64,000 nucleotides of DNA from Eledone cirrhosa (lineage: Eukaryota): contig OZ024766.1 of assembly GCA_964016885.1 (NCBI GenBank), positions 496,001 through 560,000 of the forward strand, read 5' to 3'. The notes beneath the pieces were generated by a model. That model had not been told where the DNA came from and made no database searches. It saw only the letters and a list, made by a program, of their open reading frames with translations. Shown piece by piece: positions 883-11,753 of this stretch. Position numbers and translations under genes: made by a program. Every line of letters begins with the position of its first letter. The stretch's first letter is position 1.

Positions 883-1827
883 TCATATTTCACATGAATA
901 AGGTTTTTCACCAGTGTGTATTTTTTTGTGAAGTTCAAGATGAGAATTACGAGAAAAAGATTTCCCACATATTTCACAAAGGAAGGGTTTATCACCAGTG
1001 TGTGTTCTTTTGTGAAGTTCAAGATGAGAACTACCAGAAAAAGATTTCCCACATATTTCACAATGGAAGGGTTTTTCACCAGTGTGTATTCTTTTGTGAC
1101 ATTCAAAATTAGAACTACGAGAAAAAGATTTCCCACATATTTCACAATCGAAGGGTTTTTCACCAGTATGTATTCTTTTGTGAAGTTCAAGATGAGAACT
1201 CTGAGAAAAAGATTTACCACATATTTCACAATGGAAGGGTTTTTCTCCAGTGTGTGTTCTTTGGTGACGTTCAAGATGAGAACTCTGAGAAAAAGATTTA
1301 CCACATATTTCACAATGGAAGGGTTTTTCTCCAGTGTGTATTCTTTTGTGACGTTCAAGATAAGAATCTTGAGAAAAAGATTTCCCACATATTTCACAAT
1401 GAAAAGGTTTTTCTCCTGTGTGTATTCTTATGTGACGTACAAGACTAGAACCTTGAGAAAAAGATTTCCCACATATTTCACATGAATAAGGTTTTTTTCC
1501 TGTGTGCTTTCTTTTGTGATGTACAAGCGAATAACCTTGAGAAAAAGATTTCCCACATATTTCACAGTGGTAGGGTTTTTCCCCAGTGTGTATTAATATG
1601 TGCCTTGTTAAACTACTGCTACAGACAAATGATTTCCCACATATTTCACAGTCAAACGGTTTTGCTCCTGTGTGTCTGTGCATGACAAGATGAGAATTAT
1701 GTAGAAAATCTTTCCCACATATTCTGCAGTCGAACGATCGAATACAAGGTTGTAATGTAGCCTTCAGATGGCACAAGTAATAAAACGTATGACAGCGTAA
1801 AACTGATCTTGGAAGAAGAAAAATCAA
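883..1827 (-). CDS. Poly-C2H2 zinc-finger protein ZNF-1 (1 degenerate + 9 canonical fingers); true 5' end uncertain
   Basis: Tandem CxxC-x12-HxxxH with TGEKP linkers. ORF opens at TTG, not ATG; candidate acceptor ttcttcttccaAG at 1809-1808; first in-frame ATG is inside finger 1; ends CEI-TGA. Confidence 0.8.
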
Positions 1828-2485
1828 ATGTTAATAATATATATATATATAGGTGATTATTGTGGAATATTCCACTATTATTTTTGTTAAGGTGAGAGAA
1901 GCTCTATTCACAATAACATCCTCAGCTCATAAAACAAACGAATAAGTCTTCGTAATTTAAGGTTCTTGTTATTGACGACAGTTCAGGTGACAAGAGAATT
2001 AATATACATAATTTGAAAAGATGAAGGTTAATATATATACATATATACACAGACATACAGTGTGTACGTATGAGAGAGAGAAATAGACGTGTGTGTAGAA
2101 ATATGTGTAAGTGTTGTAATAAATTAAGATATTTCACTTCAGATAGAAAAGTTCACAATGTTTGTGTTGTGATGGAAAAGGAAATAATACGAACTCTAGT
2201 TTTCAAGACCAAATATAAAGTCAAGAAAAGTTAGTAAAAACTAAACGTTCACTGATTTCTGATTAAAATAACATTTTCCTGTCCCGTAAAATGTTGAACA
2301 ACCCCTTCAATATTTAATAATACAGGTGATAAAACAACAACTATAAGGTAAATAAGTCACCGTATGTTATTTACAAACATTAACGTCCACCTTAATATGA
2401 AATAATCACCATAAAAGATAAAATTAGATGAGGTTTAAGTTGTAACAATGGAGCTGATATAAATGGTAATATTTCACTGTCTAGT

Positions 2486-2514
2486 TGACACCGGTGTCAT
2501 GACTTAAAAGTCCC
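2486..2514. promoter_or_regulatory. Conserved upstream motif of the ZNF genes (14-bp palindrome TGACACCGGTGTCA + TTAAAAGTCCC); homologues at ~7334, 12358, 18930, 27552, 32452
   Basis: Present ~510-690 bp upstream of all six ZNF ORFs; function inferred only. Confidence 0.5.
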
Positions 2515-9700: not shown

Positions 9701-10388
9701 TATTGACATTTCATAAATTTTAAAGAAGTGAATCTTTAAAGAAACAAAATATATTTAATCAACAGCCACGAAATTTAGTAGATAAATTATTTATTCAAAG
9801 TAATGCAACTTATTTTACTAATGGGATAAAAAATTATAAACCGTATGCAGTCCCGCGATCCTTACTTTATTATAGTTTAGATTTATTAGGTCAGGTGGAT
9901 TGGCCAGAACAATTCTACTCTTCTTTTTTAGATGTCACGATCTTCCATGGCATTCCTGAGATCATTAATCTCCAGCTGGACATCCTGAGACATCTGATTT
10001 ATGCAGGTCTATCTCAGTCATCGCACTAGGGTCTTACAATGTTTAGGTATCCACAACAATAGCCAGCTCATCCTACCCTCAGTAGCAATGTCCAGCATAT
10101 CTTGTCCTCCGCTCCCTAGTTATTGTGGTAATCTTTGATATATGTCAGTATATTTCTTCCCTTTGAGTAATGTATTAAAAAATAAAAATAATAAAATATA
10201 TATATACACACACACACACACATCTATGTTGAGATGTATAAGATTTCTCAAGCTTCATATTTTATATTCTGCCTTCCAAAGTGTGGCTATATATTTGTGT
10301 TTTTCATATTTCACAGTGATGGGGTTTACTGCAACTGTTGACTACGTAGGTGAACAAACATTGACGAATTCTCGTTGAAAGATTTACC

Positions 10389-11753
10389 TCATATTTCACA
10401 TGAATAAGGTTTTTCACCAGTATGTATTCTTATGTGACGTACAAGATGAGAACTATTAGAAAAAGATTTCCCACATATTTCACAATGGAAGGGTTTTTCA
10501 CCAGTGTGTATTCTTTTGTGACGTACAAGATGAGAACTATTAGAAAAAGATTTCCCACATATTTCACAATGGAAGGGTTTTTCACCAGTGTGTATTCTTT
10601 TGTGATATTCAAAATTAGAACTACGAGAAAAAGATTTCCCACATATTTCACAATCGAAGGGTTTTTCACCAGTATGTATTCTTTTGTGAAGTTCAAGATG
10701 AGAACTCTGAGAAAAAGATTTACCACATATTTCACAATGGAAGGGTTTTTCGCCAGTGTGTATTCTTTTGTGACGTTCAAGATGAGAACTCAGAGAAAAA
10801 GATTTCCCACATATTTCACATGAATAAGGTTTTTCTCCTGTGTGCTTTCTTTTGTGCTTTACAAGATTGTGCTTCTGGGTGAAAGATTTCCCACATATTT
10901 CACAGTGGAAGGGTTTTTCTCTAGTGTGTGTTCTTTTGTGGTCTTCAAGATTAGAACTCTGAGAAAAAGATTTCCCACATAGTTCACATGAATAAGGTTT
11001 TTCTCCTGTGTGTATTCTTTTGTGATATACAAGATTAGAACTCTGATGAAAAGATTTCCCACATATTTCACACGAATAAGGTTTTTCATCTGTGTGTATT
11101 CTTTTGTGATATACAAGATTAGAACTCTGATGAAAAGATTTCCCACATATTTCACACGAATAAGGTTTTTCTCCTGTGTGTATTCTTTTGTGATCTACAA
11201 GATTAGAACTTCGAGAAAAAGATTTCCCACATATTTCACACGAATAAGGTTTTTCTCCTGTGTGTATTCTTTTGTGATCTACAAGATGGGTCTCCTGAGT
11301 AAATGATTTCCCACATATTTCACACGAATAAGGTTTTTCTCCTGTGTGTATTCTTTTGTGATCTACAAGATGGGTCTCCTGAGTAAATGATTTCCCACAT
11401 ATTTCACATGAATAAGGTTTTTCTCCTGTGTGTATTTTTTTGTGTTTTACAAGGTGAGAACTCTGAGAAAAAGATTTCCCACATATTTCACAGTGGTAGG
11501 GCTTTTCCCCAGTGTGTATTAATATGTGTCTTGTTAAACTACTGCTACAGACAAATGATTTCCCACATATTTCACAGTCAAACGGTTTTGCTCCTGTGTG
11601 TCTGTGCATGACAAGATGAGAATTATGTAGAAAATCTTTCCCACATATTCTGCAGTCGAACGATCGAATACAAGGTTGTAATGTAGCATTCAGATGGCAC
11701 AAGTAATAAAACGTATGACAGCGTAAAACTGATCTTGGAAGAAGAAAAATCAA
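10389..11753 (-). CDS. Poly-C2H2 zinc-finger protein ZNF-3 (1 degenerate + 14 canonical fingers)
   Basis: Same N-terminus and stop as ZNF-1; 420 bp (5 x 84) longer. Confidence 0.8.

Follow-up and report, generated by a model that had tools for sequence, protein, structure and literature searches.

Tandem C2H2 zinc-finger genes with near-identical flanks and arrays that resemble mosaics of a shared unit pool

How do copies of one gene come to carry different DNA-binding arrays within almost identical surroundings? The window analyzed here, a single stretch of 64,000 nt, opens with three head-to-tail copies (A, B, and C) of one zinc-finger gene unit, which occupy its first 12.4 kb. A preliminary description had proposed that the flanks of these duplicons are nearly invariant, that their arrays share fingers patchily, and that the genes behave as a coding minisatellite generating new specificities faster than neutral flanks diverge. 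The first point is confirmed: the DNA outside the arrays is 96–99.5% alike among the copies (0.5–4.2% apart). The reading that we favor, with a probability of about 0.62, is that A, B, and C are tandem C2H2 genes without a detected effector domain, whose arrays are mosaics assembled from a common pool of 84-bp units and were likely rebuilt by exchange or conversion.

Layout of the duplicons and anatomy of the genes

The repeat unit measures 4.6–4.9 kb and comprises a 3′ flank, the finger array, and a 5′ flank; a 2.07-kb spacer separates the copies. Copy A is truncated at the left edge of the window, so further copies may exist. The features of the locus, including three older neighbors used for comparison, are as follows.

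1..2570, minus strand: duplicon A, with 3′ flank (truncated at the window edge), array, and 5′ flank
883..1830, minus strand: ZNF-A reading frame, stop to stop, 948 nt; 9 canonical fingers and a degenerate first finger
1672..1728, minus strand: degenerate finger 1 of A, with one residue between the histidines
2571..4645, no strand: spacer 1, 0.53% from spacer 2, with dispersed-repeat pieces and a decayed finger relic (4465–4550)
4646..7418, minus strand: duplicon B, with 3′ flank, array, and 5′ flank
5531..6730, minus strand: ZNF-B reading frame, 1200 nt; 12 canonical fingers; ATG at 6583
7419..9504, no strand: spacer 2, between duplicons B and C
9505..12441, minus strand: duplicon C, with 3′ flank, array, and 5′ flank; homology to A and B stops at 12441
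10389..11756, minus strand: ZNF-C reading frame, 1368 nt; 14 canonical fingers; ATG at 11609
12054..12430, minus strand: upstream block, present in each duplicon; 66–68% identical to the DNA upstream of D (18585–18998) and E (27207–27594)
16851..18443, minus strand: older neighbor ZNF-D, with the MEDVK N-terminus; comparison gene
25208..27139, minus strand: older neighbor ZNF-E; comparison gene
30194..31990, minus strand: older neighbor ZNF-F; comparison gene

All three duplicon frames are of the Krüppel type, with C-x2-C-x12-H-x3-H repeats, TGEKP linkers, and matches to Pfam PF00096 and PF13465; C2H2 fingers are their top Pfam families (best 25 of 29–33 per protein). The frames differ in length by 252, 168, and 420 nt, i.e., by 3, 2, and 5 × 84, exact multiples as previously noted, and these whole-unit differences are free of frameshifts. 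The 10, 13, and 15 fingers originally counted are obtained if the degenerate finger 1 is included; the canonical fingers number 9, 12, and 14. The sole in-frame ATG of ZNF-A lies at 1683, inside the degenerate finger, and a short out-of-frame ATG precedes it. Should translation begin at this putative start site, the degenerate finger of A is likely left untranslated. Linker-type polarity is the same in all three arrays. Finger 2 differs by only 2 nt between copies and the stop codon (…CEI, stop) is shared, as had been claimed for both; this stop is a nonsense codon within a further finger, with decayed finger sequence beyond it.

Effector domains were sought in two ways. Neither a KRAB nor a SET family was present among the Pfam families listed for A–C (best 25 of 29–33). 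In tblastn searches against the whole window, the N-terminal parts of two KRAB proteins (P0001, P0003) matched only finger arrays at E < 0.4, a search that, like Pfam, a highly diverged KRAB exon could escape; for PR/SET, the N-terminal parts of P0094 and P0052 gave nothing better than E 0.6 outside the fingers. The products of A, B, and C would be almost pure fingers, barring an unseen spliced-in exon. A conserved N-terminus starting MEDVK is present in D, E, and F and absent from A, B, and C. No Pfam family was found for this segment, and the N-terminus of D gave eight distant protein matches, none of them close; it is a possible lineage-specific accessory region.

A conserved non-coding block precedes each ZNF gene, including F. 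The one at 12054–12430 is likely a proximal promoter or 5′ UTR. A perfect 14-bp palindrome was observed in the upstream block of A and C, and its core is kept in D, E, and F; the palindrome-bearing block is possibly a shared promoter element.

Among the matches listed in protein searches with the arrays (best 120 of 8000; best 150), all were generic C2H2 proteins and no ortholog was identified. No octopus-named protein was seen among the matches listed for the ZNF arrays, the D N-terminus, and a reverse-transcriptase fragment of the window, and exact protein look-ups matched in 0 of 4 cases (E and F are not counted, as their queries carried no first Met). In a word search of sequencing runs with array C and short flanks, 4 of 23 runs contained 0.30–0.35 of the 157 words; they share one organism label and come from two samples of one study. 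This share, obtained from unaligned runs, is compatible with constant ends plus a different array (the ends make up 0.385) or with a uniform divergence of 3–3.5%. No RNA run was among the listed holders of array-C words.

Repeats are found elsewhere in the window. The stops of D and E are followed by decayed finger repeats (16300–16850, 24180–25250), like those of A–C, which suggests that nonsense and frameshift mutations frequently truncate the arrays. The spacer holds three diverged copies of a motif of ~87 bp at 2900–3300 (and 7750–8150), one minus-strand frame of which reads as a low-complexity protein with stops. A LINE-type reverse-transcriptase fragment (RVT_1; 14093–15040) is 75% identical to an unnamed protein and matches mostly unnamed retrotransposon proteins; further such fragments occur at 28168–28494 and 33911–34351. 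On the minus strand at 52826–53941, a coding-like 21-bp repeat in 24 copies, rich in Ala, Glu, Thr, and Val, sits in an acidic low-complexity stretch; this frame is possibly an exon of another gene. Dense unrelated minisatellites (units of 48, 51, 72, 106, 108, 112, 130, and 152 bp) fill 33500–62000, so tandem-repeat instability is general in the region. An Rfam search of 12400–64000 gave one marginal tRNA-like match.

Flank divergence and finger sharing

Substitutions in the 3′ flank number 17/882 for A/B, 10/882 for A/C, and 9/884 for B/C (1.0–1.9%), and those in the 5′ flank 27/786, 33/783, and 17/795, respectively (2.1–4.2%); the A/B spacer has 11/2068 (0.53%). Because B and C have in common a 44-bp and a 20-bp indel in the 5′ flank and many substitutions relative to A, the flanks suggest the phylogeny (A,(B,C)). 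Divergence is uneven. In the A/B comparison, the 5′ flank differs by 3.4% and the spacer by only 0.53% (p 2e-8); the substitutions also cluster in A/B and A/C (p 0.0003 or less), whereas those in B/C do not. The flanks look like mosaics of different ages and would make a poor clock. No single clock applies, so the contrast between arrays and flanks is true but no rate can be derived from it, and, given the overdispersion, the true age of the copies may exceed the apparent one. The same unevenness is a point in favor of another reading, in which A–C are older paralogs whose flanks and finger backbones are continually homogenized by conversion while the helices are spared; the arrays would then change slowly and the flank contrast would be partly an illusion.

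All of the fingers named as shared in the preliminary description were present, and the sharing is indeed patchy. Three pairs are identical at the DNA level (A9=B12, A10=B13, A7=C12), A8 and C13 differ by 1 nt, and B8 and C4 (QETHLV) by 3 nt. The 32 fingers beyond finger 2 carry 24 fingerprints (positions −1, 2, 3, 6), 21 of which are found in a single copy. For 18 of the 32, another copy holds a finger that differs by no more than 4 nt and sits at a different rank. The other 14, a point in favor of older, homogenized paralogs, have none (the nearest is 13 nt away for B7 and 14 nt for C10), so their origin calls for donors beyond the window or for older variants that were retained. Recent events within arrays are also evident, and these speak against that reading: adjacent units in C are near-duplicates (C4/C5, 1 nt; C7/C8, 2 nt; C14/C15, 3 nt), B5 and B8 differ by 1 nt, an 88-nt exact internal repeat spans B5–B6 and B8–B9, and exact matches of 145–182 nt connect the copies.

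A PHI-type test detected recombination among units, neighboring sites being less incompatible than under permutation (p 0.0002, or 0.005 when codon blocks are permuted). Allowing one template switch removes 54 mismatches, compared with 40±4 in 200 codon permutations (p 0.005). One finger is a mosaic at base resolution:

5801..5884, minus strand: finger B10 (RSSHLELH), an exact hybrid, matching C6 in its 5′ part and A7/C12 in its 3′ part

The switch point of B10 lies inside the recognition helix, between +1 and +3 (C6 matches up to +2). Its mismatches fall from 6 with the best single parent to 0 with two, and B9.63–10.50 equals C5.63–6.50 exactly over 73 nt. The data leave the direction unset, so that B10, C6, or A7/C12 may be the product. 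A rough copying model accounted for A with 6 switches, for B with 7, and for C with 9, and left 99 residual mismatches. The helix region (24 of each 84 bases) holds 56 of these (p 5e-9), which shows that change is concentrated there; by our own arithmetic on the model, the residual outside the helix is 1.5–2.4%, like the flanks. With unit gain, unit loss, and mosaic units all observed, the arrays do behave as a coding minisatellite.

Synonymous divergence among fingers (23–27%), which also counts in favor of homogenized paralogs, is far greater than that of the flanks, which indicates that most finger variants arose before the duplicons and have been reshuffled rather than newly mutated. DNA identity among fingers is 83–85% in A–C vs 70–77% in the older neighbors. 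What separates the copies thus appears to be mainly a rearrangement of pre-existing fingers, to which excess change in the helix is added. The claim that new specificities arise faster than neutral flanks diverge needs correcting on two counts: the flanks are uneven, and most variants are older than the duplicons.

Selection on the fingers and alternative readings

The zinc ligands (Cys, His) are invariant in 35/35 canonical fingers. The dN/dS comparison of helix contacts with backbone, proposed as a check on the original claim, first appears to support it: a codon model with shared dS gave an omega of 2.43 at contact codons (p 1.5e-4) and 0.23 in the backbone, with contact codons changing ~2.3–2.4 times faster than synonymous sites. 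In the closest finger pairs, omega is 0.16–0.27 outside contact codons (p 0.003 or less) and 1.7–2.1 at contact codons (p 0.014–0.12). An omega of 2.0 was not reached in any of 214 simulations with neutral contacts, whether or not conversion was included. If contact codons are given their own synonymous rate, however, their omega becomes 1.10 (p 0.78 against 1) and their dS is 2.4-fold higher; this model fits better (p 0.024). The value of 2.4 was rejected as proof of positive selection, since it falls to 1.1 once the synonymous rate is freed.

In the fit used for comparison with simulations, the observed relative dS was 1.8 and omega 1.28. When the total rate at contact codons was raised in simulations, the medians were 1.91 and 1.0, and under simulated selection they were 0.88 and 2.27; the observed pattern is nearer the raised-rate set. 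An omega of 1.2 or less was obtained in 18 of 183 runs under true selection and in 151 of 202 under a raised contact-codon rate. It has been pointed out, in the available text of a PRDM9 study, that dN/dS on converting arrays violates tree assumptions (PMC5519329). Contact omega is also high in the older neighbors D (2.6) and E (3.4), with no such signal in F, so a raised value is not special to duplicons A–C. ZNF-E, which has the highest contact-site omega, shows recent finger duplications of its own (10 of 190 finger pairs within 2 nt).

Purifying selection on the finger backbone (omega ~0.2) is a robust result, and at contact codons every kind of change exceeds that in the backbone. The contact-codon pattern would be compatible with positive selection and also with helices being spared from backbone homogenization. 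The synonymous rate at contact codons, 1.8–2.4 times that of the backbone, adds to the case for older paralogs kept alike by conversion. Against it, the most diverged 200-bp flank bin reaches only ~7%, and the recent in-array events described above point the other way. We regard this account as improbable on the whole, although it is partly compatible with the mosaic reading.

Part of the pattern would be an assembly artefact if one copy were the other haplotype's allele placed in tandem, or if B were a mis-join. Flank divergence of 0.5–2% falls within the range of allelic heterozygosity (~1.2% in a squid, according to the accessible part of PMC9068888), and repetitive finger arrays are error-prone in assembly, as indicated in the part available of 10.64898/2026.09.07.749791. 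However, three different arrays cannot all be alleles at one diploid locus, so at least two loci are present, and one copy could still be a tandem-placed allele. All frames are open, and every copy shows flank substitutions and fingers found in neither of the others, which rule out B as a simple A/C assembly join. We consider an artefact distinctly improbable; if two copies were alleles, the arrays would be strongly polymorphic, and the biological reading would be strengthened. That A–C are silent or dying duplicates, with arrays turning over neutrally like any minisatellite, is very improbable. In its favor, the family MEDVK N-terminus is absent, the first finger degenerate, the stop codon inside a further finger, broken ZNF relics nearby, and the duplication boundary < 1 kb upstream of the ATG. 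Against it, the Cys/His ligands are intact throughout, purifying selection outside contact codons is seen even in the youngest pairs, D and E retain a related upstream block, and the 3.5 kb of ORF contain zero frameshifts against ~3 indels per kb in the A/B flanks.

Relation to known systems and meaning of the locus

Under the favored mosaic reading, an ancestral array with most finger types would have been copied along with the 4.6–4.9 kb unit. The arrays would then be rebuilt by out-of-register exchange and short conversion events, both inside single copies and from one copy to another, each copy losing, duplicating, and splicing fingers and gaining a few helix substitutions. With such different arrays, each protein would recognize its own DNA target. 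It is likely that selection preserves the fold and favors, or at least spares, helix variety; with no effector domain detected, the proteins would act by DNA occupancy or via a partner.

PRDM9 is the extreme form of finger-array turnover, with a PR/SET domain and, upstream of the array, KRAB and SSXRD; its array is hypervariable among alleles of a species, and it is expressed in meiosis, where it specifies hotspots. KRAB zinc-finger proteins (KZFPs) bind and repress transposons via KAP1. The parallel drawn earlier with both systems holds for the mode of turnover; membership in either was rejected, as neither KRAB nor SET was detected by the Pfam and tblastn searches. The A–C arrays are less homogenized than human or mouse PRDM9. 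In its behavior the cluster resembles a young KZFP cluster and, to a lesser degree, a PRDM9 array, but it belongs to neither group.

In the available text on mouse, three paralogs (Zfp932, Gm15446, and GmX) show the lowest conservation of their duplicated unit in the segment that encodes the fingers, which have been duplicated, deleted, and block-repeated (PMC5363842), and fingerprint arrays of a young Chr4 cluster are mostly strain-private (PMC12575710). These clusters resemble A–C in being recent tandem or segmental duplicates with fingerprints mostly private to a copy or strain. They differ in having measured targets and strain-level variation, according to the same texts, whereas A–C have no KRAB found, a unit of merely 4.6–4.9 kb, and an array in one open frame. 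PRDM9, as far as covered in PMC5519329, shares with A–C the 84-bp unit, turnover by duplication and conversion, and diversity at DNA-contacting residues; unlike PRDM9, A–C are three paralogs rather than alleles of one gene, and the searches of the window for KRAB and PR/SET domains were negative. Contact sites account for 0.32 (−1, 3, 6) or 0.36–0.40 (−1, 2, 3, 6) of amino-acid diversity in A–C, vs 0.687 in human PRDM9, 0.910 in mouse, and 0.33 in some complete orthologs, values in the available part of that study whose position set may differ from ours. The share of 0.36–0.40 is equalled or exceeded by 17–22 of 120 homologues, among which finger identity ranks 5–13; these were selected by score, a biased set and not same-species genes. 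The A–C arrays are moderately homogenized, in the upper fifth of this biased comparison set.

The cephalopod C2H2 literature, in the portions available, describes a gene family that is expanded and clustered, with contact residues that vary and a predicted binding to transposons (PMC12513265, PMC9068888, PMC10547256, PMC12988792). The window likewise contains clustered multi-finger genes, with at least 6 intact frames in 32 kb; the cluster studies, in the text accessible, deal with gene counts, trees, and expression rather than with finger-level reshuffling between young copies (PMC12513265, PMC9068888). No report of such reshuffling among cephalopod paralogs was found in a literature search of mainly open-access main texts. 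Zebrafish FiNZ-ZNFs and metazoan tandem ZNFs are, like A–C, young paralogs with variable base-contacting residues in the available text of PMC10547256; unlike FiNZ-ZNFs, A–C have no detected accessory domain. Octopus ZNF motifs are predicted there to be enriched in transposons, and by analogy with that part of PMC10547256 only, the likeliest targets of A–C would be young repeats or transposons, a tentative proposal that we hold to be somewhat less than an even bet. A bolder version is unlikely: that A–C represent an effector-less invertebrate (likely cephalopod) family with a PRDM9-like, individually polymorphic repertoire, in which copies trade finger halves and crossovers within the helix mint specificities in one step.

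Duplicons A–C are a real-looking, well-resolved new example of a known process, the turnover of tandem zinc-finger arrays, and the surprise is limited because this process has already been described in mammals (mouse KZFP paralogs). The locus provides a base-resolution view of how a large animal zinc-finger repertoire arises, with young copies swapping and splicing fingers, and a switch within the helix leads to a recognition code absent from either parent finger. Many alleles in population data would raise its importance. If the host is a cephalopod, this would be a small, amplifiable locus at which to ask whether the C2H2 expansion forms a fast-changing recognition repertoire against transposons or a stable neural toolkit.
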